Below the pieces are notes generated by a model. It searched no databases. It worked only from the letters and a program-made list of their open reading frames with translations, and was not told where the DNA came from. Source: an uncultured Anaerolineales bacterium (GTDB taxonomy: Bacteria; Chloroflexota; Anaerolineae; Epilineales; Epilineaceae). From it: DNA of 64,000 nt. Shown here piece by piece: positions 45,738 through 64,000 of the stretch. The position numbers were made by a program, and so were the translations under genes. The stretch covers positions 514 through 64,513 of the forward strand of contig CAZJWJ010000008.1 of the NCBI GenBank assembly GCA_964549495.1, in the 5' to 3' direction. The first letter of the stretch is position 1, and the number at the start of each line of letters is the position of its first letter.

Positions 45738-45783
45738 GATCACCCCTCCGCACGCGCACTCGGAGCTCAGGGTCCGAGTCGAT

Positions 45784-45828
45784 CGCATTGCATTATTCTA
45801 TCGCAATGCATCGCAAGAGCGCAATGCG
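45784..45828 (-). promoter_or_regulatory. candidate vapBC promoter/operator: repeated CGCAATGC/GCATTGCG half-sites around a TAGAAT -10
   Basis: cgcattgc (45784-91), cgcaatgc (45802-09) and gcgcaatgcg (45819-28). attcta (45795-800) reads TAGAAT on the coding strand, 58 nt upstream of the vapB ATG. Confidence 0.5.
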
Positions 45829-45892
45829 GTCGATCCGACCATGCAGGCCATCCGCGACGGACTCAGGACTCGTCGTCATTCGCGCTCGCGTG

Positions 45893-46150
45893 CTACAGCG
45901 AAGAGCGAAATGCCTCCAAATCGTTCACCTCGAGGATCCGGCGGTGCAAGGCTTCCAGTCGCTCCGGATCCGCGATGGTCTCGATCTGAGGCATGAGCGC
46001 AAGGCCTTCGTCGCCAAAGCGAAACGCCAACAGTCTTCGGATGGCATCGAGGAAGGCGGCCTGCCGGCCGATGGCCTCTCCCTCGACTCGGCCTTCTCGT
46101 CGGCCTTCTTGTCGACCTTCGTGGTGAAGTTGCTCAGCGATCGTGGCCAC
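45893..46150 (-). CDS. small stand-alone DUF4351-like protein (C-terminal module of Rpn/YhgA-type putative transposases)
   Basis: GTG at 46150, 4 nt after AGGAGGGAG. TIAEQLHHEGRQEGRREGRVEG...LLAFRFGDEGLALMPQI...LEALHRRIL is the E-G-R-Q-E-G helix plus the RFG helical module (recall). Confidence 0.55.
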   Translation of the reverse strand: MATIAEQLHHEGRQEGRREGRVEGEAIGRQAAFLDAIRRLLAFRFGDEGLALMPQIETIADPERLEALHRRILEVNDLEAFRSSL

Positions 46151-46303
46151 GGTACTCCCTCCTAGGTCCGGCCGAGCGAATCGAGTCTCATCGGCCTGAT
46201 GGCAGGCGTCCGATCGATGCACATCGACGAGGTGCGCTGGAAAGGACTACAGCTCAGCGCGAACGGCATCCAAGTCCTCAGCGTCGAGGATCCGTCGGTG
46301 CAG

Positions 46304-46750
46304 TCACTGCAACCAACCCAGATCGTTCACCTCCCTCACTTGCCGCATCAGTGCCCGGCCTTCGTCACCGAAGCGGAAGACCAGCGTGTCCTCTACGGCA
46401 TCGAGAAGGCTGGACCAGCGTCCGTACTCCTCGCCTTCTTCGCGTCCTCGTCGACGCAGCGCCTCGGCGAGTCTGACAAGGTGCTCCCCACCTAGCAGGA
46501 GCGTTCGCATGGTTTCGATGTCGTCGATGTCGGTCAGCAATGCCAGTGCGAGGTGGAGTTGATCCGGATCGTCTTGGGCTTCGACCCAAGGCATCAAGCT
46601 CAACCCGTCCGGACCGAAGCGCATTTGCAGGCAAGTCCGCAGGCTTTCGCGGAGCCCCAGAACCCGACCCTTTCGCAGACTTTGGCTGAACACGTCTCTG
46701 GTCAAGAAATCCAAGAAGTCCTGAACCTCATGTTCCGCGGCGGCAGACAT
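46304..46750 (-). CDS. DUF4351-like protein with two tandem copies of the module
   Basis: ATG at 46750 after GGAGGGAAG. LQMRFGPDGLSLMPWVE... and RRRGREEGEEYG...LVFRFGDEGRALMRQVREVNDL; the latter is paralogous to the 45893 gene. Confidence 0.6.
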   Translation of the reverse strand: MSAAAEHEVQDFLDFLTRDVFSQSLRKGRVLGLRESLRTCLQMRFGPDGLSLMPWVEAQDDPDQLHLALALLTDIDDIETMRTLLLGGEHLVRLAEALRRRGREEGEEYGRWSSLLDAVEDTLVFRFGDEGRALMRQVREVNDLGWLQ

Positions 46751-46877
46751 CGGCTTCCCTCCTGGACTCAGTCCGTCTACGAACGGTGTGACCGGTGCGC
46801 TGCCGCATGATGTGCAGGTCCCGGCCAGTGTTGACGATAGCAGTTCATTCCCGGCGTGACGGCTGGCCCGTCCTTCA

Positions 46878-48986
46878 TCACAGCAACTGCGGGCGCCGCT
46901 GCTCGGCGAGGAAGCGCTCGGTTCCCGCTGGATCGTAGGTTCGGCGCATGATCAGCTCGAGCTCCAAGCCGTCTGGAAGGCAAGGCTGGAACTTGCTCAG
47001 CCCGCCCCGGCGGGTGTGGCCGGCCGCGCGCCTCGCCAGTGCGTGGAGGTCCGCAGCAGCCAACTGCTGGATCGAAGCGCGCGCTGCGGCCGCGGCGGCG
47101 GGATCGTCGGTGGATAGACCGAGGTTGCCGCGCTTCCAGTCGCCGCCCTGCTCTTCGAGGCCAGCCGCCAGAAGGGCGTTGATGGCACCACCGGCAAAGG
47201 TGTGCCAGTGCACCCCCTTGTCGGTGCGCTCGATCGGCGCCTCGCCCGGCGTCACCAGGCCTTTGTAGCCCAAGCGCAGCGCGGCCAGCTCGTGGGCGGC
47301 GCTCGGACTGAGCCAGGGGTAGCGCTCGGTGTCGGCCAGCACCGCCTTCATGGACTGGCAGACCTCGAAGGACAGGTAGCCTCCCTCGCCCGACCAGCGC
47401 GGCAGGGCCGCACGGTCGGCCGGCTCGACGTAGCAGACCGCCCGCCGCCAGTCGATGCTGCGCACCTGCCAGGGCTGGCCGGCCAACCGGAACAAGGCCG
47501 GTCCTGCGCGCTCCTCCAAGACATGCAGGAAGGCGAAGTCGAGGCTGCCGACCTCGCGCCGGCCATGCTGCACGCGGAAGATGGGGGGCGTGTCGAAGAC
47601 CGCGTAGAGCTCGAAGAAGTTCTTGCCGGCGTAGCGCTTCTCGCCCTCGGCGCCCAGGCTCAGCCGGCCTTCGGCTTGGTAGAGGATGTCGCGCTCGAGC
47701 ATGGTGTCGATGAGCGCATCCAGGTCGGCCTGGCTCAGGCCGCGGAAGGGGCTGGCGCCGGCCAACCAGGTCAGGATGCGATGGCGCGAGATGCCCATCT
47801 CCTGAAGCGACAGGGCGATGATCTGGTGGGCCAGGACGTGCGCGGCGGCGGTCTCCGGCACCACGTCCTCGACCCAGCCCTGCTGCATCAGGCGGATCAA
47901 TCCGGCGGCCTGGAGCATCGTCTCGGAGGTCCGGCACAGGAAGTGGCAGTTGGACACCGTTTCCGCTCGGCGGCCGGTGCGGCCCATGCGCTGCAAAAAG
48001 CTGGATACGGTGCGCGGCGCATCGATCTGGATCACGTGGTCCAGGTCGCCGACGTCGATGCCCAGCTCCAGGGTGGAGGTGCAGACGATGGCGGTGTTCG
48101 TCCCGTGCTGGAAGCGGGCCTCGGCGCGTTCGCGGTCCTCGCGGCTGACCGAGCCGTGATGCACGAAGGTGTCGATGCCCTTTCCCTGCAAGGCCGCGGC
48201 CACCTGTTCGACCAGGCGCCGACTCTCGGCGAAGACCAGGCTCTTGCGGCCCAGCCCGATCTCGACGACCCGCCGCACGACCCCCGCGTCACTCTCGACC
48301 AGGTCGACGGAAAGCTCCCGCAGCGCAGGCGGCTTGGCCGGATCGACACGGCGGTAGGGACGCTGGCTCGAGCCGGCCAGCCACTGGCCGATCCGATCGG
48401 GATTGCCGACGGTGGCCGAGAGGCCGATGCGCTGCAGGTCGCGACCACAGAAGCGGACCAGCCGCTCGAGAATGGCCACCAGGTGCGCGCCGCGGTCGTC
48501 GCCGGCAAAGGCGTGCACCTCGTCGACGACCACTGCCGACAGGCCCGCGAACTGCCCGGCCGCCTCTTCTGGTCGGGTCATCAGCATGACCTCGAGCGAT
48601 TCGGGCGTGGTCATCAGGATATGCGTCGGCGCCTCGCGAAAGCGCCGCCGCTCGGCCTGCCCGACGTCACCGTGCCACTTGAAGGCATCCAGGCCGACCA
48701 TGCGCGCATAGGCCTTGATGCGGTGCTCTTGGTTGTTCAGAAGGGCGCGGATGGGGCAGATGTAGAGTACGGCAACGGGAGCGAGCTCCTCGCTCAGGAT
48801 GCGCGACAGCAACGGAAAGATGCTGGCCTCGGTCTTTCCGCCCGCCGTCGGCGCCAGCACGATCGCGTTGTCCCCGGCAAGCACCGCTTCGATGCTCTGC
48901 TCCTGAACCGGCCGCAGCGTGTTCCAACCCAGCTCGTGCACGATGGCATGGCGCAGGTTAGGGTGCAGCTGGAAGAAGGCACTCAC
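46878..48986 (-). CDS. brxHI: Lhr-like DEAD/DEAH-box helicase, BREX BrxHI-type
   Basis: VLAPTAGGKTEA (Walker A), VVVDEVHAF (DEVH), LSATVGN, HHGSVSREDRERAE, QRMGRTGRR. 702 aa, GTG start. Position is last in the BREX operon. Confidence 0.85.
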   Translation of the reverse strand: MSAFFQLHPNLRHAIVHELGWNTLRPVQEQSIEAVLAGDNAIVLAPTAGGKTEASIFPLLSRILSEELAPVAVLYICPIRALLNNQEHRIKAYARMVGLDAFKWHGDVGQAERRRFREAPTHILMTTPESLEVMLMTRPEEAAGQFAGLSAVVVDEVHAFAGDDRGAHLVAILERLVRFCGRDLQRIGLSATVGNPDRIGQWLAGSSQRPYRRVDPAKPPALRELSVDLVESDAGVVRRVVEIGLGRKSLVFAESRRLVEQVAAALQGKGIDTFVHHGSVSREDRERAEARFQHGTNTAIVCTSTLELGIDVGDLDHVIQIDAPRTVSSFLQRMGRTGRRAETVSNCHFLCRTSETMLQAAGLIRLMQQGWVEDVVPETAAAHVLAHQIIALSLQEMGISRHRILTWLAGASPFRGLSQADLDALIDTMLERDILYQAEGRLSLGAEGEKRYAGKNFFELYAVFDTPPIFRVQHGRREVGSLDFAFLHVLEERAGPALFRLAGQPWQVRSIDWRRAVCYVEPADRAALPRWSGEGGYLSFEVCQSMKAVLADTERYPWLSPSAAHELAALRLGYKGLVTPGEAPIERTDKGVHWHTFAGGAINALLAAGLEEQGGDWKRGNLGLSTDDPAAAAAARASIQQLAAADLHALARRAAGHTRRGGLSKFQPCLPDGLELELIMRRTYDPAGTERFLAEQRRPQLL

Positions 48987-48992
48987 CCGCGC

Positions 48993-50363
48993 CTAACCCA
49001 ATCGTTTCGGAGTCGGAGACTCGGACGATGGTTCGCCGGCTGGGGGCGGCGTTTCCACAGAGTCTTCCGCGGCATCACCACCCTTGCGCGCCTCCAACTC
49101 CTCCGGCGTGAGCGCCGACTCGTCGACCGTGAAGTCGTAGTCCTGCTCGGGATCGTAGTCGGGGTAGAGGTCGACCCGGTCCATGACGTCGACCAGGTCG
49201 CGCAGGAAGAGGCGCGGGACGATGCTGACCTGGCCACCGAAGGCGCTGGTGGCCTGCTGGACGAGCGCGTCGATGAAGGCGTCGTCCACCCGCTCGCGTA
49301 GGCGGTCCGGATGCTCGGCTGGGAAGAGATCGCGCACCTTGCGCCCGACCTCGGCCAGGCGCTGGGCGTCGAAGGGCTGGAGGCGGACCTGGGGGGCGCG
49401 CAGGTTGTCGAAGCGCGGGTCGTCACCAAAGCGGGTCTCGACGCGCGCCGCCAGGGGCGACAGATCCTTGATGCCCTTGTAGCCGTCGTAGAACTCTGGC
49501 GTGCCGGTGACGACCAGGTAGAGGCCCGGCAGGTCGCCGCCCAAGAGGAGGTCGATCAGCTGGCGTAGGGCGTTGAGCGCTTTCTCGCGCACGTCGGAGC
49601 GCATGCGCTGCACGGTCTCGACCTCGTCGAGCACCAGCATCAGGCCCTGGTAGCGGCTCTCGCGCAGCAGTTGGAGCAGGCCGCGCAGGAAGGTGAGCGC
49701 GCCGGGTCCGTCCAGGTCGCCCTTGACGTCTGCGCTGCGCTTGATGGCCGCGGCCACGCTGGGTTCGCCGGAGAGCCAAGCCAGGAGCCCCTGGGCGGTG
49801 GCGAAGTCGGATTGTTCCATGGCCCGGTGGTAGGCGCGCAGAGCGCGCGCGAAGGCCGGGTTGCGCGTGCTCAGGTCGGCCAGCTTGTTCTCTAGCCGCT
49901 GCTCGACGGCCGCTGGGAAGGCCGGGTCGCTCTCGGCGATGCCTTGCAGGCGCATGACCTCTTCGCCGATCTCGTAGATCCAGCTGTCGACCAGGGCCGG
50001 AAAGGCGCCCTCGCCATCGGTGGCGGTGGTCAGGCGCTCCATCAGGCGGCGGTAGACGGTCTCGAGCCGGTGCAGTGGCGTGTCCGTGACGGAGATCTGG
50101 ACCTCTGCGGTGGCGAATCCGCGCTGGCGGGCGTGCCAGCACAAGAGCCGCGTGGCAAAGGTCTTGCCGCTGCCGTAGTTGCCCCGGATCCACTTGGCCC
50201 GGCCGCTGCCGCCACCACCGGCCACCTCGTCCAACTCCCCATCGATGACCTTCAGCAGCGGGTCCAGGCCCGTCGCGAAGTGGTGCAAGCCGTCGCCCGG
50301 CACCGCGCCAGTACGCAGCGCGGCCACGATCTCGCGCGCTTCTCGCTCTTGAACCTGGCTCAT
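48993..50363 (-). CDS. brxD: BREX ATP-binding protein BrxD (DUF2791-type P-loop ATPase)
   Basis: VAALRTGAVPGDGL..., IRGNYGSGKTFATRLL (Walker A), LMLVLDEVETV (Walker B). 456 aa. Family assignment is by recall. Confidence 0.8.
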   Translation of the reverse strand: MSQVQEREAREIVAALRTGAVPGDGLHHFATGLDPLLKVIDGELDEVAGGGGSGRAKWIRGNYGSGKTFATRLLCWHARQRGFATAEVQISVTDTPLHRLETVYRRLMERLTTATDGEGAFPALVDSWIYEIGEEVMRLQGIAESDPAFPAAVEQRLENKLADLSTRNPAFARALRAYHRAMEQSDFATAQGLLAWLSGEPSVAAAIKRSADVKGDLDGPGALTFLRGLLQLLRESRYQGLMLVLDEVETVQRMRSDVREKALNALRQLIDLLLGGDLPGLYLVVTGTPEFYDGYKGIKDLSPLAARVETRFGDDPRFDNLRAPQVRLQPFDAQRLAEVGRKVRDLFPAEHPDRLRERVDDAFIDALVQQATSAFGGQVSIVPRLFLRDLVDVMDRVDLYPDYDPEQDYDFTVDESALTPEELEARKGGDAAEDSVETPPPAGEPSSESPTPKRLG

Positions 50364-51463
50364 GCGGAGGGCTCCTGGGGAATGAAGACGTATTGCGGCT
50401 CACCCGTGGGCAGCGTCTCGCTCCGGAAGCAGCGATAGCCAAGCGCCTGCAGCTGTCGGTCGAGCCCGTTCATGAAGCCCGGAATGCGCGCCTTGCGCGT
50501 GTCCAGGCCCTCGGCCAACTCGCTGAGCGAGACCGAGCCATTCTCCGACAGGAGCCACAAAGCACGCCGCTGTCGCTTGTCGAGCTCGTCGAGGACGGTC
50601 GGAGACAGAGGTGGCCGATCGTCGGTTTCATCACCGGCACCCGCGACCGTACCCACCTCATCATTCGGCTCCAGTGGTTTTGGCGGCACCGGCGACCTCG
50701 GCGACTTCGACGACTCCGGCGGCTTGGTCGTCGCGGGCTCCGCCTGCTCGCGCACCGAGACGGCCGGCATGTCAGCATAGGCTCGGATGTCGATTCCTTC
50801 CGACGCTGATCCACTGTCATCCAGTTGCGGCTGATTTGCCGGAATGGGGTCGGTCGACGGGACGTCCATTGCAGTCAGCTCGCGCTCGCCCTCGAGCAAG
50901 GGCTCGAGCGGGTCGGACCTGAAGCGCCCACCGGCCCACAGTCGTCGCCACATGACCACCGCGATGCCGAAGCTCAGGATCAAGAGCGTGAGCATGATCT
51001 GATTCGAGCGAGGATCGTCGGTGGTCAGGAATTCGTCGCCGAAGACGATGATCATGCCGATCACCCAAACGACGAACACCACCACGCTGAGCACCGTGAC
51101 CGCGGCGAGGTGCAGCCCAGCGCCGAGGCTGGCGACGACGGAATGCATGCGCGCCTGCACCTGCTCCGTGGGCGTGAGCCCGGCCGGCAGGCTCTGCAGC
51201 GGTCCGTGCGAGCGCAGCCAGCGGGCGCCGAGCACGGTCATGCCCAGGGTCAGGGCCATGGCAAGGCGGAATTGGGCGTCCGACATGCCCTCGCCCGTGC
51301 TCTGGATCCCGAGCAGCATCTCGCCGACGGCGAGGATGACCGCGGCCATCACGAAGGCCAAGGGCCCTGCGATGGACACGCGGAGAATCCAGAGCAGGCA
51401 CCCGCCGAGCTGCGCCGGATCGGGCCCAGCCGCGAGCTGGTCCTCTGGCTTCTGGATCGTCAT
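50360..51463 (-). CDS. uncharacterised multi-TM protein with Pro/acidic linker and C-terminal winged-helix-like module (non-canonical BREX-embedded gene)
   Basis: ATGA overlaps with both the pglZ stop and the brxD start. 4-5 TM helices in aa 20-170. The C-terminal 70 aa are ~45% identical to the PglZ C-terminal tail. Confidence 0.75.
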   Translation of the reverse strand: MTIQKPEDQLAAGPDPAQLGGCLLWILRVSIAGPLAFVMAAVILAVGEMLLGIQSTGEGMSDAQFRLAMALTLGMTVLGARWLRSHGPLQSLPAGLTPTEQVQARMHSVVASLGAGLHLAAVTVLSVVVFVVWVIGMIIVFGDEFLTTDDPRSNQIMLTLLILSFGIAVVMWRRLWAGGRFRSDPLEPLLEGERELTAMDVPSTDPIPANQPQLDDSGSASEGIDIRAYADMPAVSVREQAEPATTKPPESSKSPRSPVPPKPLEPNDEVGTVAGAGDETDDRPPLSPTVLDELDKRQRRALWLLSENGSVSLSELAEGLDTRKARIPGFMNGLDRQLQALGYRCFRSETLPTGEPQYVFIPQEPSA

Positions 51464-54042
51464 CCACCACCCCGCCAGCTGTACTGATGCTCGCCCGAGC
51501 CCAGGCGCTCGACCTCGAAGAGCGGTTGCCCTTCGGCCTGGAGCGTGTGGTGGAGCTTGGTCATGAAGCCGCGCACCCGAGCCGGGCGCATCTCCAAGCT
51601 GCGAGCCAGCTCGGTCTCGGTCAGGGTCCGGTTGCCGGCCAAGAGCGCCAGGGCCCGCTGCTCGTTGTCGTCGAGGCCCTGCGCGATGCCCTCGGGGATC
51701 TCCGCCGGCAGCCGGCGCGGAACGGCCACCGGCTTCGGCTCGACGGGCTTGGCCGGCACCTCCGGCAGGGCCGCGGCGACCAAATCCCCCGCGGGACCAG
51801 GCTCTTCAACGACCGCGTCCAGCTCCACGTGCTCCGGGAACCTCTCTCGCGCCGCGGGCCCGGCATCGAACCACCAAGCCGGCTCCTCGGCCGGCAAGCC
51901 GCCCCGCTCCAACCAAGCCAAGGGCACGGCCATCTCCTCCAGCCCGCAACCCCCGTGGTAGCCCACCTTGGGTTGGTTGCCGCGATAGGCCGACATCCGC
52001 CAGGCAAAGGCCTGGCGCGCATCGGTGCCGCCAAGCCCGTGGGTGTCGATCTCGATGAAACCCGCCGGCGCAGCCTCGCCCTTGCCGAGCGCCAGGAAGC
52101 GCGCGGTGGCCCCGGCGCTGACGCGATGGTCGGTGCTGGCATGCAGGCTGTGGCCGTGATCGCTGGTGAGCAGGACGCTGCGGCCGGCGTCGAAGGCCGC
52201 GTTCAGGGCCGGCAGCAGGCCGGCGATCTGATCGGCGCGGACCTGCACCGAGAGGCCGGCCGCGCTGCCGATGAGGTCGTCCACGGTGTTGTAGACCGCT
52301 ACGACCAGCCGCGGACCGTCGGCGGCCAGGGCCGCGCGCAGCGAGGCGCCGCCATCGGCCAGGTCGCCCTTGAGGAAGAGCTGCGTGCTCAGGCTCTCGA
52401 GCCAGTCGTTCTGGTTGAGCCGCGCCTTGTCGGTCTTGGCCGCCTCGGCCTGCCAGGTCGATTCCTCGACCAGGGGATCGTCGGGAATCTTGCCCGCCAT
52501 CAGGGCGCCGCGGGCGTGGCTGGTGATCGAGGGCAGGATGGAGATGCCCAGCGGCAGCTCGGCAGCGCCAAGGTCCTCGCCCAGCTCCAGGCCGATGCCC
52601 GTCCCCGCCGTCGCGGCCAGCTGCCACAGCAGCTCGTTGAAGACGGCCAGGCTGCAGCCGTCCAAGACCACGACGAAGACCGGCCGGCCGCTCTGGTCGA
52701 TGCGCGGCCGGGCCACATCGCGCAGGATGTTGTGCATCGGCACGACGCCATCCTGCCCGATGGCCGCAGGGTAGTCCTCGGCCAAGGACTTGGCGAAGGC
52801 CAGGTTCTCGGCGTCGCGCCGCTTGCGCCAGGCGTCCAGGACGGCCCCGGCCTCCGAATGGAAGCTGCCGGTGGCCGCCAGGCAGCGCTGCATTCGCATC
52901 GCGGCCAAATCGGCAAAGGCGCCGTGGCGCTGGTAGGCGCGCAGGCGGGCGTCGATGGCGCTGGCCGAGCTCTCCTCCGTGGCCAGGTAGCGCGAGAGGC
53001 GGGCCAGCTCGGCGAGCAGGGCCAGCTCGCGCCGATAGGCGTCCACGGCGCGATGGCGCTCGAGCCATTCGATCTCTTCGCGCCCGATGGCCTCGCCCGC
53101 GGCGGCGCGATCGGCGATCTGCGCGGCGCGGTTCTCGAAGCCCAGCGGAAGGATGTGGCTCCGGGCGATCAGCGAGGGGGCAAGTAGCTGGCGGGCGAGG
53201 CTGTCGGCCTGCTTCAGGTAGGGTGCCGCGGCCGGCCCCATCTCGTCCAGCACCTTCTCGATCAGCTGGACGATGCTCCGGCGCAGGCTATCGGACGGCA
53301 GGCCGACGTGGGCATCGTCGAGCGCGCCGTCGAGCGGGCCCCAGACGGCCAGCGGCAGCTCGTCGGACTCGGTGGCCAGCAGGATGCCGTGGACCAGCAG
53401 GGCTTCCAGGCGACCCGGCTCGGCCAGGCTCCAGGCCAGGATGCGGCCCTGGGTGCCCAAGTGGACGGGGGACTGGCGCCTGAAGAGCCGGCGGACGGGC
53501 GGCTCCAGCGCGGGGCCCTTGGCCAGCAGCTTGGCGACCACGCCGGCCGCGCTGGCGCTGCGGATGCGCTGTTCGAGGATGATCTCGATCAGCAGCTCTT
53601 CCAGCAGCTGGGCATCGACGACGGTGGGTAGGGTGCGCTGGGCCATGGTCTGGCGCAGCTGCGGGGCGTGGTCCAGGGCCAGCTGCTGCAGCTCTGGGTC
53701 CTCCACGCCGCTGACCTGCACGCCCAGGGCCACCGAAAGGATGTCGACGATGGACAGGGTGTGCACGTGCCCGCTGCAGGAGCGCTCGAGCAGATCGGGC
53801 GGCAGCCGCTGCGCCAGCTCGCGCGGCATCAGCGCGATGAAGGGCGCCCCATCCGCCTTCCAGACCGTCCGCCGCAGGGCCAGCTCGGTCTCGCTGCGGC
53901 AGACGGTGAACTTGCTGCCGCCGGCCTCGACGGCCTCGGGCAGGTCACCCAGCCCGCCTTCGTCCAGCGCCAGCACGTAACCGCCGCGCTCGGCGCAGCC
54001 GGCCATCTCGATCAGGCGCTGGATCAGGGGCGTGGCGTTCAT
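51460..54042 (-). CDS. pglZ: BREX alkaline-phosphatase-superfamily protein PglZ, with extra C-terminal winged-helix-like module
   Basis: PglZ core: VFVVVLDGCSLAVF, SITSHARGALMAGK, VYNTVDDLIG, VLLTSDHGH. 860 aa. ATGA overlap with the brxC/pglY stop. Confidence 0.9.
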   Translation of the reverse strand: MNATPLIQRLIEMAGCAERGGYVLALDEGGLGDLPEAVEAGGSKFTVCRSETELALRRTVWKADGAPFIALMPRELAQRLPPDLLERSCSGHVHTLSIVDILSVALGVQVSGVEDPELQQLALDHAPQLRQTMAQRTLPTVVDAQLLEELLIEIILEQRIRSASAAGVVAKLLAKGPALEPPVRRLFRRQSPVHLGTQGRILAWSLAEPGRLEALLVHGILLATESDELPLAVWGPLDGALDDAHVGLPSDSLRRSIVQLIEKVLDEMGPAAAPYLKQADSLARQLLAPSLIARSHILPLGFENRAAQIADRAAAGEAIGREEIEWLERHRAVDAYRRELALLAELARLSRYLATEESSASAIDARLRAYQRHGAFADLAAMRMQRCLAATGSFHSEAGAVLDAWRKRRDAENLAFAKSLAEDYPAAIGQDGVVPMHNILRDVARPRIDQSGRPVFVVVLDGCSLAVFNELLWQLAATAGTGIGLELGEDLGAAELPLGISILPSITSHARGALMAGKIPDDPLVEESTWQAEAAKTDKARLNQNDWLESLSTQLFLKGDLADGGASLRAALAADGPRLVVAVYNTVDDLIGSAAGLSVQVRADQIAGLLPALNAAFDAGRSVLLTSDHGHSLHASTDHRVSAGATARFLALGKGEAAPAGFIEIDTHGLGGTDARQAFAWRMSAYRGNQPKVGYHGGCGLEEMAVPLAWLERGGLPAEEPAWWFDAGPAARERFPEHVELDAVVEEPGPAGDLVAAALPEVPAKPVEPKPVAVPRRLPAEIPEGIAQGLDDNEQRALALLAGNRTLTETELARSLEMRPARVRGFMTKLHHTLQAEGQPLFEVERLGSGEHQYSWRGGG

Positions 54043-57000
54043 GCGCCAGCATCGTCCTCGGGCTTGCGGCGCAGGGTGATGTCGATGCGCAGCTCGGCGG
54101 CGCCCTGGGCGGCCTGGGCAATCTGCGACCTGAGCTTGCTGATGAAGGTGTCGACTTCACGCGGGTCGATCGGCTTGTCTCGCTCGTGGAAGACCTCTTC
54201 GAAGTCGCGAGGTGGCTCCGGATCTGGGTCCGGATCCGGGTCGGGGTCCGGCTTGACCGTGATCAGCTTTCGCACGAGATCTGCGGCATGCTCGTTCCAG
54301 TCGTGGATCTTGGCACCCGTCAACGTGCTGTGCTGTCGCTCCGGCTCCAACCAATGCTGAAGCTTCTCCACATGGTGTTGGATCTCCTTGCCGAGCACGG
54401 GATTGCCGAGTGCCCGTCTCAAATAGCCCAGATCATCCTCGTCGACCCGCTTGACCAACTCGAGGTCGGCCTCCGCACCCCGCGTGACGCCCCGCAGGGG
54501 GTCGTCGATGTCGTCGGGCCAGGCGCTCACCAGGGCGGCCAGCATGTGGTAGGAGTCGAGCTTGGTGTCGTCTACGGGCTGGAGGCGGTCGATGGCCTGG
54601 CGCAGCTCGCTGAGGCGCGGCGTCTGCTCGCTGCCGCCCAGGCGGACCAGTAGCGAGTGCAGGCTCCGCAGCTGCTGGCGGGCCAGGTGGCCGGCCTCGC
54701 GGATCTGGCCGCCCCAGGCGTCCTGGATGCCCAGGGTGCGGTAGGCGGTGGGTTCCTCCAGGCCGAAGAGGACCGCGCCCAGGTTGCGCGCGCGGCTCCA
54801 CTCGGCGGCTTCGAGGACCGGTGCGCGTTCGAGCAGCAGGCCGACGCGGGCGTTGTTGTCCAGCTTGCCCGGGTCGATGGGGTCACCGGTCTTCTCGGCC
54901 AGGGTGCGGTAGCTGCGGGAGCGCAGGACGAAGAAGAGGAATAGGTTGCGCAGGGCCGGCTGCAAGCCGTACTCCTCGGTCAGCGCGTTGTCGATGGGCG
55001 CCCAGAGCAGGCTCGCCTCGCCCAGGGGCTGGAGCACGTGCTGGATGTAACGGGTGTCCTGCCGCAACTGGCCGTGGGTCTGTCCGAGCTTGACGACCTC
55101 GAGCGGCTCGCCCAGGTCGCGCAGGACGCGCTCGGTCTTGTCGTCGAATGGAGCGCGGGCGCTTTCGGTCTCGGAGGCTTGGAGCATCCAGCCCAGGAGG
55201 GTCTCCAAATCTCCGGTGGTGGGCCGGGACTTGAAGCTGGGGTGCTGCGGGTAGCGTCGGTCGAGCAGGCTGCGCGCGAAGTGCTCCAGGTTGTCGGACA
55301 GCTCGGGCTTGGGGATGCTCTCCTCGACGTCGCCGACCATGGCGATGATCTCGCCGCGGTCGCGGTAGGCGCTCTTGATGGCCTCTTGGAGTTGGGCACG
55401 CAAGGTGGCGGCGCGCTTCTCGGCCCGGTCGACCAGCTGGAGCTGGTCGGAGGGGTCGCGGTTGGGCATCAGGCTCTTGCGGCCTTCGGGGCTGGCGATC
55501 AGCTCGCAGGCGGCCAGGTCGGTGATCAGGTCCAGCTCGTGGGGGGTGAAGTGGCGGGGCAGCCAGCAGATGGTGTAGAGCGAGCCTTCGGCCTTGCGCA
55601 CGGTGGGCACGCGCAGGCGGTCGTCCTCGACCGAGAAGCCGGCTTCGTCCCAGGGGTAGTCGATGACGATGCGGAACTCGGCCGAGCCGGGGCGGAAGCG
55701 CTCGTAGGGCATGGCGCGGATGTTGCCGATGCACAGGCTGCCGCGCCGCTCGGTGTTGCGCCAGTTGACGCGCAGGGGCCCGTCGTTGTTGTCCTGGGGG
55801 CCGAATCCGCTCTGGCCGGCGATGCCCAGCTGCTGCTTGAAGACGCTGTAGAAGGTGTGGAAGCGGCGCTGCAAATTGTCGACGCTGCTCTTGGCGCGTT
55901 CGAGCAGCTCGCCGAAGTCGGGGCCCTCGATGGTGATGCTGACCACGGCGTTGCCGCCAGAGCCGCTGATCTGCACGGCCGGGATGCGCCGCGAGAGCTC
56001 GAGCAGGTCGCCGGCGGTGACCGACATGCGCCCGAGGTCGGTGCGGCCCTGGACTTCGACGTCGTTGAAGCGCACCAGGCGATCGACGCTCAGGTCGGCA
56101 AAGCCGGAGCTGAGCCGGGGCGAGACCTTGCCCAGGAGGCTGGTCTTGACCAGTTGGGCCAGGGTGTGGGCGCGGCGCTCGTCGATGCTGCCCAGGTTCT
56201 CGTCGGCGGCCATGCTGGCGATGGCCGGGCCGATGCGTTGGTGGTAGAGGTTGTTGATGGCCTGCAGGGTGGTGACGCGGCGGTAGCCGATGAAGTTGTC
56301 GGTGGGAAAGATGAAGTCGAAGGCGCTGCCGACGGGCACCAGCTCGCCCAATGGCAAGTCGCGGCTGGCGATGAGCAGCTGGTAGAGCAGGCGCAGGGCG
56401 GTGCGGTCGCGCTGCAACAGCGAGGAGACGTCGATGAGCATCTCGATGAGCGCGGGGTGGTAGGGGTAGACGTCGCGCAGGTAGTCTTCGTCGCCGGATT
56501 GCAGGATGGTGGGCAGCAGCTTGCTGTGGCGCTCGGTCAGGGCGTCGAGGACGGGCGCGAGCTTGTCGGGGTCCTTGACCTTCAACACCCGCTCGCGGAC
56601 GATGTGCCGCAGCTCGACGTCCTCCAGGGTGATCAGCTCGAAGCGCTCGCGGTGGTGGTCGAGGTGCTCGTGGAGCTCTTCGTTGTCGCTCATGTCGGGG
56701 AAGAAGTCGGAGAAGCGCCGCTGGCGGGCCATCAGGACGGCCAGGGGGATGTCGCGCGGGCCGCCGCTGAAGTCGACCATCACGTTGAGCTGGTTGATGG
56801 CGGCCTTGAAGTCGTGGTCGTCCTTGCCGGAGAGCCACAGCAGCATCTCGTCGAGCATCAGCACCAGGCCGTCGAAGCCTTGCTGCTTCAGGTGCGTGGC
56901 CAGCCGGCGCAGGCCTTCGGCCCAGGCGGGGTTGATGCCGGCCTGCTCGGCGCTCATGCCCTTGTATTCCAGGTAAGCCAGGGCGAACTTCTCGCGCGGC

Positions 57001-57614
57001 TTGATGTCCTGGCTGCCCAGCAAGTGCTCGAGTACTTCCTGGGCATCGGGGACGCCGACGCTTTCCATGCCCTTCCAGAAGGCCTCGCCGTAGCGCTGGC
57101 CTTCGCGCTGGGCCTGCTGCAGCACGCCGTCGACGTCGATGAACTCGAAGAGCGGCTTGCCGCGCTTGTCCAGCTCGCGGTTGACGGCTTCGTAGACCAG
57201 GCGGTCGAAGCGGTCGGATTGCCGGGCGGCGCTCATCAGGTTGACGCGCACGACCAAGAGCTCGCGCTCGGCCACCCAGGGGCGGAACTGGCTGCGCAGC
57301 TCGCCGACGAAGGGGTGGTCTTTCTGCCAGGCCACGTCGGAGTTCTCGAGCAGGTAGCTCAGGTAGCCCATGAAGTGGCTCTTGCCGGAGCCAAAGCTGC
57401 CGTGGATGAACCAGCCCACGCCCTTGCCCTGCTTGAGCTCGGCCTTCATGCGCGTCAGCACGGCCCGCAGATCGTCCTGCACGCCGGGCGTCAGCACGTA
57501 GCTGTCGACCAGGCGCTGGGGCGAGTGCTCACCTTCGTCGATCTGGATGACGAAGTCGAGGGCGGAGATGCCGCTGGGAATCTCGAAGACGTCGTCGAGC
57601 GTCACCTGACTCAT
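54039..57614 (-). CDS. pglY: BREX large P-loop ATPase PglY/BrxC
   Basis: 1191 aa. WFIHGSFGSGKSHFMGYL (Walker A), LVLMLDEMLLW (Walker B). Length and position are typical of BrxC/PglY. Confidence 0.85.
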   Translation of the reverse strand: MSQVTLDDVFEIPSGISALDFVIQIDEGEHSPQRLVDSYVLTPGVQDDLRAVLTRMKAELKQGKGVGWFIHGSFGSGKSHFMGYLSYLLENSDVAWQKDHPFVGELRSQFRPWVAERELLVVRVNLMSAARQSDRFDRLVYEAVNRELDKRGKPLFEFIDVDGVLQQAQREGQRYGEAFWKGMESVGVPDAQEVLEHLLGSQDIKPREKFALAYLEYKGMSAEQAGINPAWAEGLRRLATHLKQQGFDGLVLMLDEMLLWLSGKDDHDFKAAINQLNVMVDFSGGPRDIPLAVLMARQRRFSDFFPDMSDNEELHEHLDHHRERFELITLEDVELRHIVRERVLKVKDPDKLAPVLDALTERHSKLLPTILQSGDEDYLRDVYPYHPALIEMLIDVSSLLQRDRTALRLLYQLLIASRDLPLGELVPVGSAFDFIFPTDNFIGYRRVTTLQAINNLYHQRIGPAIASMAADENLGSIDERRAHTLAQLVKTSLLGKVSPRLSSGFADLSVDRLVRFNDVEVQGRTDLGRMSVTAGDLLELSRRIPAVQISGSGGNAVVSITIEGPDFGELLERAKSSVDNLQRRFHTFYSVFKQQLGIAGQSGFGPQDNNDGPLRVNWRNTERRGSLCIGNIRAMPYERFRPGSAEFRIVIDYPWDEAGFSVEDDRLRVPTVRKAEGSLYTICWLPRHFTPHELDLITDLAACELIASPEGRKSLMPNRDPSDQLQLVDRAEKRAATLRAQLQEAIKSAYRDRGEIIAMVGDVEESIPKPELSDNLEHFARSLLDRRYPQHPSFKSRPTTGDLETLLGWMLQASETESARAPFDDKTERVLRDLGEPLEVVKLGQTHGQLRQDTRYIQHVLQPLGEASLLWAPIDNALTEEYGLQPALRNLFLFFVLRSRSYRTLAEKTGDPIDPGKLDNNARVGLLLERAPVLEAAEWSRARNLGAVLFGLEEPTAYRTLGIQDAWGGQIREAGHLARQQLRSLHSLLVRLGGSEQTPRLSELRQAIDRLQPVDDTKLDSYHMLAALVSAWPDDIDDPLRGVTRGAEADLELVKRVDEDDLGYLRRALGNPVLGKEIQHHVEKLQHWLEPERQHSTLTGAKIHDWNEHAADLVRKLITVKPDPDPDPDPDPEPPRDFEEVFHERDKPIDPREVDTFISKLRSQIAQAAQGAAELRIDITLRRKPEDDAGA

Positions 57615-57701
57615 CGGCTGGGTCCTTGGCTGTGCATGTCGTATCGGTGGAGGCGGCGGAGAGGCCAGCCCGTGAACGGTGCGGCGTCCGTCAGGGCTCG
57701 C

Positions 57702-59456
57702 CTAGTCGTCGCCAAGGCGGATCGCCCCCTGTTCGAGGATCTGATGCGCGAGCTGCTTGGGGTTGTAACCGCCCGGGATGCGCACCAGCGGCTTGTCGTA
57801 GGTGTCGCAGTAGGCCTTGACCTCACTGTATCCGTGGCTCGACCAGCGGATCAAGAGCAGCACGACCGCGACATCGGTCCGGGCGATGGCCGATTCGAAC
57901 TCGGTATAGGAGGCCGCTCCGCCGTCCAACCACAAGAGCTCGCTGAGGCCGAAGGCCCGCTCGATGCGCTTCTTGTGTCGTGGGCGCTGGATGCCGCCGA
58001 TCAGCACGACGGCCTCACCCTCCAACAAGGCGCGGACGCGCTCTTCCTCTTCGCTCGGCGTTTCGGCAGCGATGTCGTCGTCTTGGAGATGCGCGGTTTC
58101 GGTCTCGCGCGATGCCAGGTACCGGTCGATGGCCCGCGAGGTGAGCAGGACGTTCTGGCCGGGCTCGATCTCATCCGGGATGTCGTCGAAGACGGGCAGC
58201 AAGATGTCGCGCAGTTGGACGCTGCTGGGTGCCACGCCCGACTCGACCAGTTTGTCGACGGCGTCCAGCGCCCGGTCCCAATCTTCGCGAGCGCCAGGGC
58301 CGGTTGCGCCGCGAATGCGCTGGATGTGATAGCGCAGCCGTCCCCATTGCCGTGCCTGGTCGCGGCCGACGCTGAGCTGCGCCTCGAGTTCATCGCGCAA
58401 TTCGGCGCAACGTTCGCGCAGGCTTCCCCATGCGCCCGGGTCGGCGGGATCGGTCAGGCGCATGTAGCGCGAGAGGTAGATGCGCTGGCGATCGGTGATG
58501 GAGCGGAGCCAGCCGAAGGCGTCACGTTGGCTCTCGTCACTGCGCTCGTCGAGTCTGGCCACGGCGAGGCGCAGGGCGGATTGGGCTTCGGCCAGGAGGG
58601 CCAGGGCCTGGCTCAGGGCGTCGGAGAGCTCGTCGGTTTCGAGGATCATCGCGCAGAGTCGCAGGGCATCGGCCAGCGCTTCGAAGTTCCCCGCCAATTC
58701 GTCCCAATCTCCCGGGTCGGTGGGGACGGGCGCGTCGCTACGGCACATCCACAACGAGACCTTGGCGCTGTGGCCCTTGCGCAAGATCTCGCGATCGCCG
58801 GGCGCGATCTCGGTATGGAAGTCCACGCCCCGCGCCAAGCGCCGCTGCCGCTCCCCGACCCAACGCGCGGCCTCCGCCTTCAGGCTCGCGTCGCCGGCCA
58901 GCCGGATCAGCAAGCGGCTCTGCGGCTCCGGCGCGGATGCTTCGGTGCCTGTCCGCCCCTGGTCTACGGTCTGTGACGCAGCCATCTCGGCGCGCGCAGC
59001 TTCGCGGGCTCGTCGGGCTTCTCGAGCCTCCTCGGCACGTTCGGCTTCGCGGGCGGCCAATACCTGTGCGATCCGCTCCTCGAGCGATTCGGGCTCTTCG
59101 GGCTCCTCCTCGTCTTCGTCGGCCTGGTCGGTGCTGGCATCTTCGTCGCGATCGGCCTGGTCGCCTTCGTCATCGGCGTCCGTCGCCGGCGCTTCGGCCG
59201 CGGGCTCGCCGGCACCGGCTTCGTCGATCTGCTCGGGCTGGTCGGCGACCGCGTCCAACTCCGGCTGGCGCAACGCGCGCTGGATTCGGTCGGCCGCTTC
59301 GAGCAGGATCGCCCGCAGCTCGGCGTCTTCCTCCGCCAGCTTCGAGAGCCGCAGCAGCAGCGGGAGCATGCTCTCCGCGAGCGAAGCGGCATCACCGCGA
59401 ACCTCTCCGCCCGGCTCCGTCCGATCCTGGTTCATGCCTTGACCCTCGTCGCTCAT
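57702..59456 (-). CDS. uncharacterised acidic protein with DUF2325-like C-terminal domain (non-canonical BREX-embedded gene)
   Basis: True start is the ATG at 59456, forming an ATGA overlap with the pglX stop; the track's 730-aa form carries a Gly/Arg junk extension inside pglX. D/E-rich aa ~70-135, helical middle. C-terminus VVLIGGIQRPRHKKRIERAFGL...TDVAVVLLLIRWSSHGYSEVKAYCDTYDKPLVRIPGGYNP. Confidence 0.8.
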   Translation of the reverse strand: MSDEGQGMNQDRTEPGGEVRGDAASLAESMLPLLLRLSKLAEEDAELRAILLEAADRIQRALRQPELDAVADQPEQIDEAGAGEPAAEAPATDADDEGDQADRDEDASTDQADEDEEEPEEPESLEERIAQVLAAREAERAEEAREARRAREAARAEMAASQTVDQGRTGTEASAPEPQSRLLIRLAGDASLKAEAARWVGERQRRLARGVDFHTEIAPGDREILRKGHSAKVSLWMCRSDAPVPTDPGDWDELAGNFEALADALRLCAMILETDELSDALSQALALLAEAQSALRLAVARLDERSDESQRDAFGWLRSITDRQRIYLSRYMRLTDPADPGAWGSLRERCAELRDELEAQLSVGRDQARQWGRLRYHIQRIRGATGPGAREDWDRALDAVDKLVESGVAPSSVQLRDILLPVFDDIPDEIEPGQNVLLTSRAIDRYLASRETETAHLQDDDIAAETPSEEEERVRALLEGEAVVLIGGIQRPRHKKRIERAFGLSELLWLDGGAASYTEFESAIARTDVAVVLLLIRWSSHGYSEVKAYCDTYDKPLVRIPGGYNPKQLAHQILEQGAIRLGDD

Positions 59457-62400
59457 CCTGCCTCCGCCCACTGCGCGAGGAGCGCTTCGGTCACGCCCTG
59501 CTCGCCCACCAGGTCCTGTACCACCGCCCGGAACTCCTCGGCCGCCGCCTGGTCCTCCCAAGCCACCCAGGGTAGCAGGAACCAGACCCCGTACAGCAGA
59601 CCATAGCAGCGCTCCAGCGCCAGCCCTTCGTTGGCCGCCCGCTCGTAGAGCCCCAGCAGCACCTCGGCCCGCTGCAGCGGCGTCCACCCCGCCCAACCAT
59701 AGAGCGCCCGATCCCCCTCGGCCCCGGGCACCTCGGTAAAGGCGATAAACCGCTCCTTGGGCACATCCAACTTCCCCCGCAGCCGCCAGTAGGCCGTCTT
59801 CTGAAACTCCGCACTCCGATACTTGGGCGGCACCGGCACCTCGACCTCTTCGCCCCGGTCCTCGGCATGCTGCAGCTCCCAGGTCCGCTCCCAAGCCGCC
59901 CGCTTCTCCAGCCCCTTGGGCTTGTACACGTGATGCTTGTTGTTGGGCACGCTGTCCACCGCCACCAGCCGCTCCAACTCCCCCACCAAGGAATAATCCG
60001 GCCGCCCCGTCCGCACCTCACACACCGCCCGCACCTTGGCATCCCCCTCCAAGGCCACCGCCGCCTGCGCCAAGGTCCACGGCGCCGCCTGCTCCTTGGC
60101 CCAATCCTCCAGCCGATCCGCCAACCACCCATCCAGCGCCTCGCGCTCCTCGGCCTCGTAATCCGGCTTGTACCACCGCCGCTTGTAGGTCGGCTGCTCC
60201 AGCAGCTGCAAGGCCTTGCTCTTCTCGATCAGCGCCAGCCGCGCCTCGACCCGCGCTCGATAGGCCTCGTCCTCGATCTCGGCAGTGTCGGTGACGGGAT
60301 CCCAGCCGTGGCGGGAGAACCACTTCGTGGGTATCCGATTCCGCAACTCGTCGCGAGTATGGGCACCTCGGATCTCATGATCAAGTCGAGCTAGACGAAT
60401 CTCGAAAGCCCGCAGGCCGGGCCGAATGGGCGGCGCCTCATCTGGTCCAAGTGATGCCACCGCCGAATCAGAAAAGTCAACACCTGGATCTACGTTGTAT
60501 AGTGCGTAGCAGTACCAGTCGAGTTCCTCTTGTATGGCAACAAGGGTCTTGAGGTACTCCAGATCAGCGCTACGATGCGCGAGCAATTCACTTCGCAATG
60601 CAACGGGACCTTCAGACAGTAGTTGATCGATCTTGTCGCGAACCCGTGACATTACACGCTCAGATGCAAGCAAATCCATCCTACGCGCATACTGATCCAG
60701 TTTACCAGGTAACAACTCCACCACGGGGAATGCCTGCATCTTTGTAGAGTCGTATACCGCACGTCGCTCCCACCCCTCACTGGCAATTCCGCCTCCGATT
60801 CCCCCTGTCCCCTTATCAAAGCAGACTTGCTTCAGCCAGAACAGACTTGTCGATGAATTCAATTGGCCAAGCAGAACGTAGTGCTCGTCCTCAGTTACTT
60901 CGGGTGGCATCTTGATTACCGGAGCGGCTTGATTGAATACGGTCCCTAGTTGATCGAGCGCGAAGTGGTTATGGGTGGCAAGTTCCGCAAACACTATCGT
61001 ACGCGGAGTGAATCGATCCGCGGAAATCTGCCCGTACTCCCACCACGGTTTCTCCACGTCGCGATACTCAGCCCCACCAAACACCTTCCGTGCTTCAAGC
61101 AATCTACGGTATGGCCAGAGAACGTTCGAGACACCACCAAGTGCTTCAATGTCGATCGTGCGTATTTCACTTGTGTAAGGAAACAGCACTTCAAGCTGTG
61201 CTTCCGCACACCAGTTGCGGATGTTTTCTCCAACCCCAAATAGCCTGAGGAGTGCCGAGCTACAGCCGCGCCGCTCGAACACCCCTAGCGGCTGGGAGAA
61301 GGCATCGTCCATTTTCGTGATGCACATGAAACCAATTGCATCGGCAAGTTCACCAACTGTGTGAGCTGCTACCTCCTCTACTCGAGATTGGAGTCGACTG
61401 GCACCGCCTCCTCGAAGACTCCAAGGGTGAGAGTGATACTTTCGATTAGGACTATCATCAACTGAGATATACTGATTCTCGAAGTCAGGGTCTCGGTACC
61501 CCGCCTCGATACTCGACCAGACTAACCCTTCCGATGGTTCCACAGGCACGCTTGGTTCACCTCGTTTGCCGAGCACTGTCCGCACCAAGTCACTTGCATT
61601 TGGGAATGAGGCTCGGCCGAAGATCATTACTGTAGGTGTACCGTGCCCAGGGATGTAGGCACCCGCGGTGTCCACAATCATCGTCAGCGTCACGGTCGGG
61701 AAGAACCTCTCGATTAGGGCTGCCCCAAAACTCCGCTTAGAGAAGGAGTTGGCAGTTATCAGTCCTACGTAGCCACCCTTATCCTCTGTGACTGCGAGTT
61801 GAAAACAGCGTTCAGTAAAGGGGCAACCAAGCGAGTAGAGTCGGTAGGCAGAGACGTATCGTGGCTGCTTCTGCCCACCGACCGTGATCTCCTCCTTGTG
61901 GTACTTCTTGCGCGCCTTGTCCTTCTCGGTGATGTAGGGCGGGTTGGCCACTACCGCGTGGAACCCCTCGGCCAGCACCGGCCGCAGCTGCTCGCGGACC
62001 TCGCGCGGCGTGAGCATGGCCGCCGGCTTGTCCTTCACGCTCACCGCCACTCCAACGCCATAGTCGTCACCGAACCCTAGCTGCTGGATCTCGCCGGCCG
62101 GCTCCTTGGCGTCGGCTTCCAACTCGACCTGATCCAGCCCATCCGCCCAGAAAATCTGCGGATGGAGGTCGGCCCCATTGGAGAGGTCGGTGGAGCCGGC
62201 GAGTTCGAGGGCGTACATCAGAAGTCGGGCTCGGGCCAGGGCGCAGGCGTAGTCGTTGAGGTCGATGCCGACGACGCGGGAGAGGACGTGTTGGGCGGCT
62301 TCCATGGGACTCAGGTCGGGGCGGGCCTGGCGGAGGCCGGTGAAGAGGCGGTCGAAGCCGGCCAGGAGGAAGTGGCCGCTGCCGCAAGCGGGGTCGATCA

Positions 62401-63059: not shown

Positions 63060-64000
63060 TCAGGCCGGGTCCTCCACGGGGATGGCTTGGTCGAGCGGCA
63101 AGACCGCTCCCTCGATATGGAACAGCGGTGCGCTGCGGTTGAGCATGGGCTGCTGCTTGTGGATGATGCCCGGCACCACCACCACCCACATGCCGCGCTC
63201 CGTGCCCAGCGTGGCGTTGTAGATCTGTTGCACCAGGTGGGTCGCCTGGCATAGCTCGAGCAGGGCCAGGTCGCCCAGCACGTTTACCGCGCCAGGCCGG
63301 CCGTGCTCGCGCAGCAGGTCGCGCAGCAGCGTCTCGGCCGCCTCGGTCAGCTCGTCGCGCAGGAAGGCAAAGCGCTCGGCCTTCTCGAACTTGGCGAAGT
63401 CGGACTCCATGCGGCCCAGCAGCTCCGCCTCGAAGCTGATGAAGTTGGCATCGGGGCCCATCGCGCGGGCGATGTTGCGGCCCAGCTCCGGATGCTGGTC
63501 GGGCGGGGTGACCACCATGCGCCAGCTGCCCTCGCGTTGGGCCGCCGCCAGCATGCCACCCACGATCTGGGAGGGGCTGCGCTCGGCCGTCAGCAGCATG
63601 GCCGGCAGGGCATCCGGCTCCGGGCCCGGGCGGGCCTCCACGGCATCCGGGCCGCGGGCCACCAGCTGGTCGCCGTCCAGGCGGACGCCGGGTAGGTCCA
63701 ACTCGGCCACCAGGTCGGCCAGGGTCTGGTCGGCCGGCCAGTCGACCTGGTCGTTGAAGTGGGCGTCGATCTCCGCCTTCAGCGCGTCCAGCGCCATCGG
63801 CAGCTGCTCGCGGTGCAGCAGGAAGGGCAGCGCCAGGCGCGGGTCGACCGGCGGGCGGAAGAGCTCGCCGGCATCGGTCCGGTCCAGATCGCTGGCGATG
63901 CGCGCCACCAGCTCCACCGGGTCGCCGGCGAAGCCGGGCAGCGTCGCGGCCAGGGAGTCGCGGGCCGCCTCGCCTTGCTTGGGCGGCCAGTCGGCCAGGC
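63060..64000 (-). CDS. 3' part of the gene preceding pglX (open to window edge); possible BrxB(DUF1788)-like C-terminal region, identity unresolved
   Basis: I translated 63918-64000 by hand. The frame stays open (…LADWPPKQGEAARDSLAATLPGFAGDP-VELVARIAS…), so the GTG at 63917 in the track is probably internal. The stop lies 1 nt before the pglX ATG. The tail ...GMWVVVVPGIIHKQQPMLNRSAPLFHIEG loosely recalls the BrxB C-terminus. Confidence 0.6.
   Translation of the reverse strand, partial: LADWPPKQGEAARDSLAATLPGFAGDPVELVARIASDLDRTDAGELFRPPVDPRLALPFLLHREQLPMALDALKAEIDAHFNDQVDWPADQTLADLVAELDLPGVRLDGDQLVARGPDAVEARPGPEPDALPAMLLTAERSPSQIVGGMLAAAQREGSWRMVVTPPDQHPELGRNIARAMGPDANFISFEAELLGRMESDFAKFEKAERFAFLRDELTEAAETLLRDLLREHGRPGAVNVLGDLALLELCQATHLVQQIYNATLGTERGMWVVVVPGIIHKQQPMLNRSAPLFHIEGAVLPLDQAIPVEDPA

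Follow-up and report, generated by a model that had tools for sequence, protein, structure and literature searches.

Does a gene that lies inside a defence operon, its start codon overlapping the stop codon of the gene before it, necessarily belong to that defence system? The question is raised by a 64,000-nucleotide (nt) stretch of contig CAZJWJ010000008.1 from an uncultured Anaerolineales bacterium, which as a whole we call the window. Its minus strand carries an operon of the type 2 bacteriophage exclusion system (type 2 BREX, or BREX-2), and between the methyltransferase gene pglX and the ATPase gene pglY lies a gene for a protein of 584 amino acids (aa). A preliminary description of this DNA had seen in the gene's position a hint of a regulator or adaptor of PglX/PglY, and had raised the speculation that an acidic tract in the protein might mimic DNA. 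Our analysis suggests instead that the gene is probably a one-off insertion and not a dedicated BREX component.

The gene and the junction downstream of pglX

Long open reading frames (ORFs) arise by chance at high GC content, and the DNA here has about 68% GC. Judged by its conservation, however, the ORF is a genuine gene and not such a chance product. We built a family profile from the 584-aa protein and its first relatives and searched it against 1.84 billion cluster representatives; we judge the gene real because this search recovers 2292 related representatives (E ≤ 1e-30 for 1163), and almost every one is a full-length protein of 500-650 aa. The preliminary description had allowed that the ORF might not be conserved outside this genome; the family is in fact large. 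Coordinates and translation bear out the rest of what it said of the gene and its place in the operon: 57702..59456 (-) translates to 584 aa plus a stop, the ATG (59456-59454) shares three bases with the TGA of pglX (59455-59453), and the two neighbours are recognised as PglX by NCBIfam and PADLOC and as BrxC/PglY by PADLOC. The sequence GGAGG lies 5-9 nt ahead of the start codon, and the family alignment shows an N-terminal MS[DE] in common with the homologues P0004, P0006 and P0007. A promoter and terminator scan found no sigma-70-like promoter at either end of the gene and terminator-like sites only at the level of shuffled sequence. We rejected an antisense ORF of 1312 aa, 55038..58976 (+), which covers both pglY and the 584-aa gene, as a typical high-GC shadow. 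Sub-ORFs of this antisense frame mislead a gene caller that uses only the GC content at third codon positions (GC3).

What normally occupies the junction downstream of pglX? We compared 11 loci holding PglX relatives from metagenomes, and none of them contains a member of the 584-aa protein's family. Six related BREX-2 loci (L092, L093, L094, L097, L098 and L100) have no gene between pglX and pglY, the two matches being about 90-230 nt apart. Two further loci have no pglY adjoining pglX: in L095 (1715-4533), which holds the closest PglX relative at 52% identity, pglX is followed by two unrelated unknown genes of ~465 and 475 aa without a Pfam match, and in L096 (3133-6553) by a type I restriction-modification pair, hsdS and hsdM, on the opposite strand. 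Because these two loci carry other cargo there, the position downstream of pglX is variable and the 584-aa gene is one of several alternative occupants. As far as gene order tells, the junction seems to serve BREX-2 loci as a slot for cargo.

The end of PglX itself carries a further sign. All seven PglX relatives examined, which we judge to represent about four independent lineages, end in W-x-P...RGRKKK, a basic tail. The PglX of the window lacks RGRKKK and ends ...QWAEAG* exactly at the ATG of the 584-aa gene (59453-59500). No remnant of the tail is found in the 87-nt spacer that follows the gene; no other gap between genes of the operon is of any size. Moreover, GC3 is 0.83 in the 584-aa gene and 0.84 in a 367-aa ORFan further along the operon, compared with 0.93 in pglY, 0.92 in pglZ and 0.88 in brxD and brxHI. 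Because the PglX tail is missing at the gene's ATG, and because GC3 is lower than in pglY and pglZ, these comparisons point to insertion of the gene into the 3' end of pglX. If a single gene landed there, the ATGA overlap could have arisen as a side effect and would then not be an evolved coupling.

The course of events that we favour is thus as follows. One copy of the family would have inserted at the extreme 3' end of pglX, within the variable slot between pglX and pglY, and the insertion would have cost PglX its conserved basic tail and given rise to the ATGA overlap, so that the gene would now be made from the mRNA of the BREX-2 operon. There it would most likely be a passenger expressed along with the operon; at most it would be a modulator specific to the lineage, and not a core BREX subunit. 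Loss of the PglX tail by insertion would also amount to a natural experiment on the need for that tail.

The protein family and its genomic settings

A scan of genomes gave 231 relatives, mostly from Planctomycetota (Pirellulales, Gemmatales, Isosphaeraceae, Paludisphaera, Fontivita and Roseiconus), with some in Chloroflexota and other metagenome-assembled genomes. Counting clusters at 50% identity, we define a large, widely distributed and uncharacterised family of >1100 clusters, mainly in Planctomycetota, with a core of ~285 aa that has no Pfam model or fold match. One planctomycete metagenome-assembled genome, ELA013 (JBAWVO01), holds two copies on different contigs (L032 and L038), so that a single genome can contain paralogues. 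Searches of a phage database and of IMG/VR gave no relatives, and a plasmid search gave matches to the C-terminal domain only, all in Deinococcus.

If the protein worked with BREX, one might look for BREX genes near its relatives. We searched 88 + 3 family loci, with flanks of up to 10 kb, by tblastn with the window's PglW, PglX, PglY, PglZ, BrxD and BrxHI, and found a BREX gene in none of the 91; there was one weak, generic helicase match. Judged by these surroundings, the family is not a BREX family. Nor did all-against-all clustering of the flanking ORFs reveal a conserved neighbour, the best cluster occurring in 9 of 84 loci. A census covered 139 immediate neighbours, at most two per locus, and gave heterogeneous housekeeping Pfam families; RtcB recurs in five and a FAD/halogenase in four, which may reflect shared synteny among related genomes. 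PADLOC matches among these neighbours are sporadic, mostly a single neighbour each. The proposal of a regulator or adaptor thus finds no counterpart in the family's 91 loci, in its housekeeping neighbours or in the empty slot of related operons, and the case that the preliminary description itself saw as fatal to it, homologues never linked to BREX or defence, is essentially what these loci show. A lead towards MADS was dropped: a few neighbours match mad1, mad2, mad3 or mad8, the matches being spread over several loci as seen with at most two censused neighbours each, and the locus that we traced (L046) has no MADS set, only a weak mad2-like methyltransferase domain in the second downstream neighbour.

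The nearest relatives, 57-65% identical over the core, lie in genomic settings unrelated to each other. The nearest of all, P0002, is found on a 17-kb contig with Replic_Relax and resolvase genes; a circular plasmid was considered and set aside, there being no terminal overlap, and the contig stays mobile-element-like. P0008 adjoins a VWA protein and P0005 lies beside crcB. P0007 overlaps its upstream gene, which encodes a 552-aa protein with a weak Trans_reg_C match, by 4 nt (L001 8346-11932), so the BREX copy is not alone in having its start codon overlap the gene before it. The neighbours of these close homologues share nothing else with the window.

The strongest alternative to insertion is that the gene encodes a genuine lineage-specific BREX-2 accessory subunit, a regulator or adaptor kept stoichiometric with PglX by translational coupling, which would bind PglX and/or PglY and tune methylation or defence; we regard this as possible, if doubtful. 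The gene shares strand, operon and the ATGA overlap with pglX, with no promoter-like or terminator-like site at its ends, and the loss of the PglX tail coincides with the arrival of a gene that could compensate for it. BREX loci are moreover known hosts of auxiliary modules, which have been surveyed in a preprint (10.1101/2025.10.09.681413). The three close relatives found on long contigs also lie near toxin-antitoxin (TA) or STAND genes or in a mobile-element-like context. This last proximity says little, because TA and STAND genes are common in these genomes. What tells against an accessory subunit is the record of the family loci (0 of 91) and of the six related operons with an empty slot, together with the lack of a PADLOC or NCBIfam match and a canonical type 2 set that consists of PglW, PglX, PglY, PglZ, BrxD and BrxHI (preprint 10.1101/2025.10.09.681413). 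Its share of probability comes from the tight embedding of the gene in the operon and from the loss of a conserved tail by PglX. Were modulation of PglX by the gene borne out, BREX would gain an accessory of a new kind.

Protein architecture and the C-terminal domain

We built an AlphaFold2 (AF2) model of the 584-aa protein on 22 sequences; its mean predicted local distance difference test score (pLDDT) is 83. The model upholds most of the architecture proposed in the preliminary description, namely an acidic disordered tract, a helical region and an alpha/beta C terminus; the exception is the "short helix" at the N terminus, which is a hairpin of two helices (residues 22-62). Hairpin, helical core and C-terminal domain are conserved in the family alignment, and the linker is not: across 22 members it ranges from 35 to 165 residues and from a net charge of +2 to -28, and its sequence does not align. 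The core carries the family motifs LKAEAARW..RQRR, LAEAQSALR, D.DQ..F.WL, MRxDDPADP, RLRYH, PPSS.ELR and REIDRYL. The C-terminal domain is modelled as a four-stranded parallel alpha/beta unit (residues 480-584), with conserved LIGG..R after strand 1, RWSSH after strand 3 and KPLVR.P.GYN after strand 4.

At full length the protein has no match in Pfam (E ≤ 0.01), PADLOC, NCBIfam or PHROGs, while the neighbouring genes match strongly, in keeping with the earlier statement that it is no canonical BREX component; nor is it a described one. The Foldseek comparison that the preliminary description had proposed was made with the AF2 model against PDB and BFVD and gave no match at E ≤ 1e-3; the top matches are generic helical-plus-Rossmann proteins (eIF2B subunits, AerR, RccR) with template modelling (TM) scores of 0.1-0.3. 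The ~285-aa helical core likewise has no Pfam, PDB or fold match. A stretch of ~55 helical residues resembles the C terminus of I-CreI, with E 0.15-0.6 per single chain, which we judge to be chance; a match at E 1.4e-4 in the PDB profile search came from a tandem single-chain construct. A LAGLIDADG homing endonuclease was rejected, as the protein shows neither the LAGLIDADG core nor its alpha-beta-beta-alpha-beta-beta-alpha fold, the AF2 model being all-helical at the matched stretch. So was a HEPN reading of the RLRYH motif, given its wrong spacing and unconserved His.

The C-terminal domain is, by its profile match, a divergent DUF2325 (PF10087) below the Pfam threshold. Taken in isolation it matches PF10087 at E 1.2e-5 with 25.8 bits, the gathering score of 33.6 not being reached. 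PF10087 is the top Pfam match in five of the six divergent members tested (E 1.2e-5 to 0.03), the sixth giving no match, and the other members score 14.9-23.6 bits. The alignments fall in the same register, from profile positions 1-2 to 79-81 of 94, with positions 1-79 covered by the C-terminal ~80 residues of our protein. The DUF2325-like C terminus of the preliminary description therefore stands for the isolated domain and its relatives, at a score short of the threshold and not for the full-length protein. Searching with a profile of the domain yields 309 proteins, the majority of them short fragments belonging to this family; about a third of the domain matches listed carry a precomputed PF10087 label. 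No solved structure matches the domain in a PDB profile search or in Foldseek; the only matches are generic, Rossmann-like or flavodoxin-like, at E > 0.1. As the function of DUF2325 is not known, the match to PF10087 explains nothing mechanistically.

The same module is found on Deinococcus megaplasmids, in hypothetical proteins of 550-675 aa (e.g. WP_225523292.1 and WP_148231983.1) that are likewise uncharacterised and without a Pfam match. These resemble the family in having a helical N terminus, a P/A-rich linker and then the alpha/beta domain, but in hhalign only the last 120 columns align (probability 99.5), and the helical N-terminal parts are not detectably related. Such a protein is present in four of the five Deinococcus plasmid regions inspected, two of which place it beside plasmid ParAB or RepA genes. 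Our profile comparisons thus present the C-terminal module of the family as a divergent DUF2325 common to Deinococcus megaplasmid proteins. In D. gobiensis a stand-alone version of 122 aa adjoins a 3'-5' exonuclease, with topA ~2 kb upstream.

What might the 584-aa protein do? Alignment and model together place the conserved C-terminal residues at the C-terminal edge of the parallel sheet. In Rossmann-like and flavodoxin-like folds, ligands usually bind in a crevice at this edge. Our best guess, held with much lower confidence than insertion itself, is a ligand or partner module joined to a helical scaffold and a tethered hairpin: by analogy with those folds the C-terminal domain would probably bind either a partner protein or a small phosphorylated ligand, output or scaffold would be the part of the helical core, and the N-terminal hairpin, on its flexible acidic linker, could dock back on the core.

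Alternatively, the gene might be an inert passenger, a recently inserted paralogue that has no function and is decaying into a pseudogene. Only the window shows the arrangement, the gene's GC3 lies below that of the neighbouring genes, and the usual contexts of the family are unrelated to BREX. We nonetheless find decay improbable: the frame is open over its full length, AF2 models the protein with confidence, GGAGG precedes the start codon, and all invariant family residues are kept, although this last holds by construction of the alignment column counts. A more elaborate possibility, to which we give just as little weight, is a rebuilt BREX-2 in which a gene of this otherwise housekeeping-like planctomycete family, captured at the 3' end of pglX, has replaced the DNA-binding-like basic tail of PglX; its acidic tract would act in trans on PglX/PglY as an intramolecular-style DNA-mimic brake or as an adaptor, and the brake would come off when the DUF2325-like domain sensed a ligand. 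If true, this would be a new built-in regulatory subunit of BREX and the first functional handle on DUF2325-like domains.

Least probable of all is that the acidic tract is a DNA mimic on the DNA-binding surface of PglX (or PglY/PglZ) that restrains the methyltransferase as Ocr does, possibly with an origin in mobile-element anti-restriction. Ocr is known to inhibit BREX through its binding to PglX. In S. coelicolor, PglX is reported to be toxic when PglZ is absent (PMC4365076). The tract of the 584-aa protein, at a net charge of about -26, is the most acidic among the 22 family members examined, and the contig of P0002 carries Replic_Relax and resolvase genes. Yet the idea is weak. Ocr and ArdA, which do mimic DNA, have a rigid fold, but the tract is predicted to be disordered; neither its sequence nor its length or charge is kept across the family, and in distant members the linker is neutral; the phage and IMG/VR collections hold no relatives; and no Pfam or PHROG anti-restriction family is matched.

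Several observations weigh against a one-off insertion and what we have built on it. We found no flanking direct or inverted repeats beyond short matches at chance level, and no insertion scars. A tight ATGA coupling and a place in an otherwise overlapping eight-gene operon would also be expected of a functional subunit. The arrangement is carried by one genome only, the 91 loci are a small sample of the >2000 family clusters, and the suggestion of ligand binding draws on fold logic, Foldseek having returned no significant match.

The host operon and comparison with known systems

By its gene content the locus is a type 2 BREX operon, with all six canonical genes in canonical order, pglW being represented by its C-terminal end only. 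The minus-strand order is pglW (3' end)-pglX-584-aa gene-pglY-pglZ-367-aa ORFan-brxD-brxHI. Besides the ATGA overlap and the 87-nt gap on the two sides of the 584-aa gene, the junctions are a 1-nt gap between pglW and pglX, 4-nt overlaps at pglY/pglZ, pglZ/ORFan and ORFan/brxD, and a 6-nt gap between brxD and brxHI (Table 1). Type 2 BREX has been found in 1309 taxa, of which 1039 are actinomycetes (preprint 10.1101/2025.10.09.681413); since BREX-2 is mostly actinomycete, a planctomycete-like BREX-2 is itself uncommon.

A few features of the operon and its surroundings deserve mention. PglY is divergent, scoring 297 bits with the NCBIfam BREX-2 PglY model against a cutoff of 1700, although the PADLOC BrxC/PglY models match well. 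A stretch of ~1.5 kb in pglX (60350-61850, PglX residues ~400-900) has 52-55% GC against a background of ~68%; it falls between the methyltransferase motifs and DUF7008 and may be a horizontally exchanged target-recognition region. The 367-aa ORFan has no homologue among 5.8 billion proteins and no family match; its translation has several hydrophobic, putatively transmembrane segments at the N terminus, a P/S/E-rich disordered middle and a C terminus that looks like a winged helix. A toxin-antitoxin pair lies just beyond brxHI, at 45053-45788 (-): the 143-aa toxin has a PIN domain and the 104-aa antitoxin is of the PrlF/MazE type. Next, at 45788-46810, come three small ORFs without annotation, in which GC3 is lower.

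Table 1. Coordinates of the 584-aa gene, the parts of its product, the genes of the host operon (positions in the window) and the Deinococcus proteins that carry the C-terminal module (positions in the loci named).
Feature	Coordinates	Strand	Remarks
584-aa gene	57702..59456	-	stop codon at 57702-57704; large, unnamed, mainly planctomycete family
ATGA overlap, gene start codon / pglX stop codon	59453..59456	-	
N-terminal helical hairpin, residues 22-62	59271..59393	-	AF2 model and alignment; amphipathic pattern kept across the family
Predicted disordered acidic linker, residues 64-124	59085..59267	-	27 D/E, 1 K/R; pLDDT <50
Long charged E/R/A-rich helix, residues 125-165	58962..59084	-	in the alignment common to nearest relatives only
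All-helical core, residues 179-463	58068..58922	-	pLDDT mostly >90; conserved
C-terminal alpha/beta domain, residues 469-584	57705..58052	-	divergent DUF2325, by profile match
pglW, 3' end	63060..64000	-	runs off the window
pglX, BREX-2 methyltransferase, 1201 aa	59453..63058	-	NCBIfam NF033451 1019 bits (cutoff 400); PADLOC PglX 1103 bits
Spacer before pglY, 87 nt	57615..57701	-	likely right edge of the insertion
pglY / brxC ATPase	54039..57614	-	PADLOC BrxC/PglY 488 bits
pglZ	51460..54042	-	NCBIfam NF033446 282 bits (cutoff 200)
367-aa ORFan	50360..51463	-	non-canonical; overlaps both neighbours by 4 nt
brxD	48993..50363	-	PADLOC 567 bits
brxHI helicase	46878..48986	-	PADLOC 855 bits
Deinococcus protein with C-terminal module	L104 7330-9357		
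Deinococcus protein with C-terminal module	L105 4504-6342		
Deinococcus protein with C-terminal module	L106 4738-6390		
Deinococcus protein with C-terminal module	L107 4342-6345		

More generally, the locus illustrates that a gene's place in a defence operon cannot be taken as evidence that it acts in defence, even where start and stop codons overlap. We would give further work on this gene a moderate to low priority, because its linkage to BREX is single and unreplicated and because a mechanistic handle is lacking.

How, then, does the gene compare with what is known? It resembles the parts of type 2 BREX in lying inside a complete operon, and differs from them in not being among the six components and in being absent from six related loci. 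Genes embedded in BREX loci as cargo include BrxU/GmrSD and nucleases. The 584-aa gene is like these in being non-core and in occupying a slot that holds other cargo in L095 and L096; it is unlike them in that its product has no recognisable effector, nuclease or regulator domain and its family otherwise occurs in non-defence contexts. With Ocr and ArdA it shares a very acidic segment, and it stands beside the gene for the methyltransferase that Ocr targets, but the segment is predicted to be disordered and is unconserved, and there is no similarity of sequence or fold. With DUF2325 proteins its C-terminal domain shares the motif logic GG...sH...kP. Cj1384 of C. jejuni, a DUF2325 protein induced by oxidative stress, is a stand-alone, cysteine-rich protein of 104 aa (PMC9426514), whereas the 584-aa protein has ~470 extra residues and no cysteine cluster; DUF2325 has also been described in an inovirus ORF, and neither account assigns a function to it. 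Taken together, these comparisons place the 584-aa gene both among the cargo embedded in BREX loci and among the proteins with a DUF2325-like domain, as a new member of both kinds.

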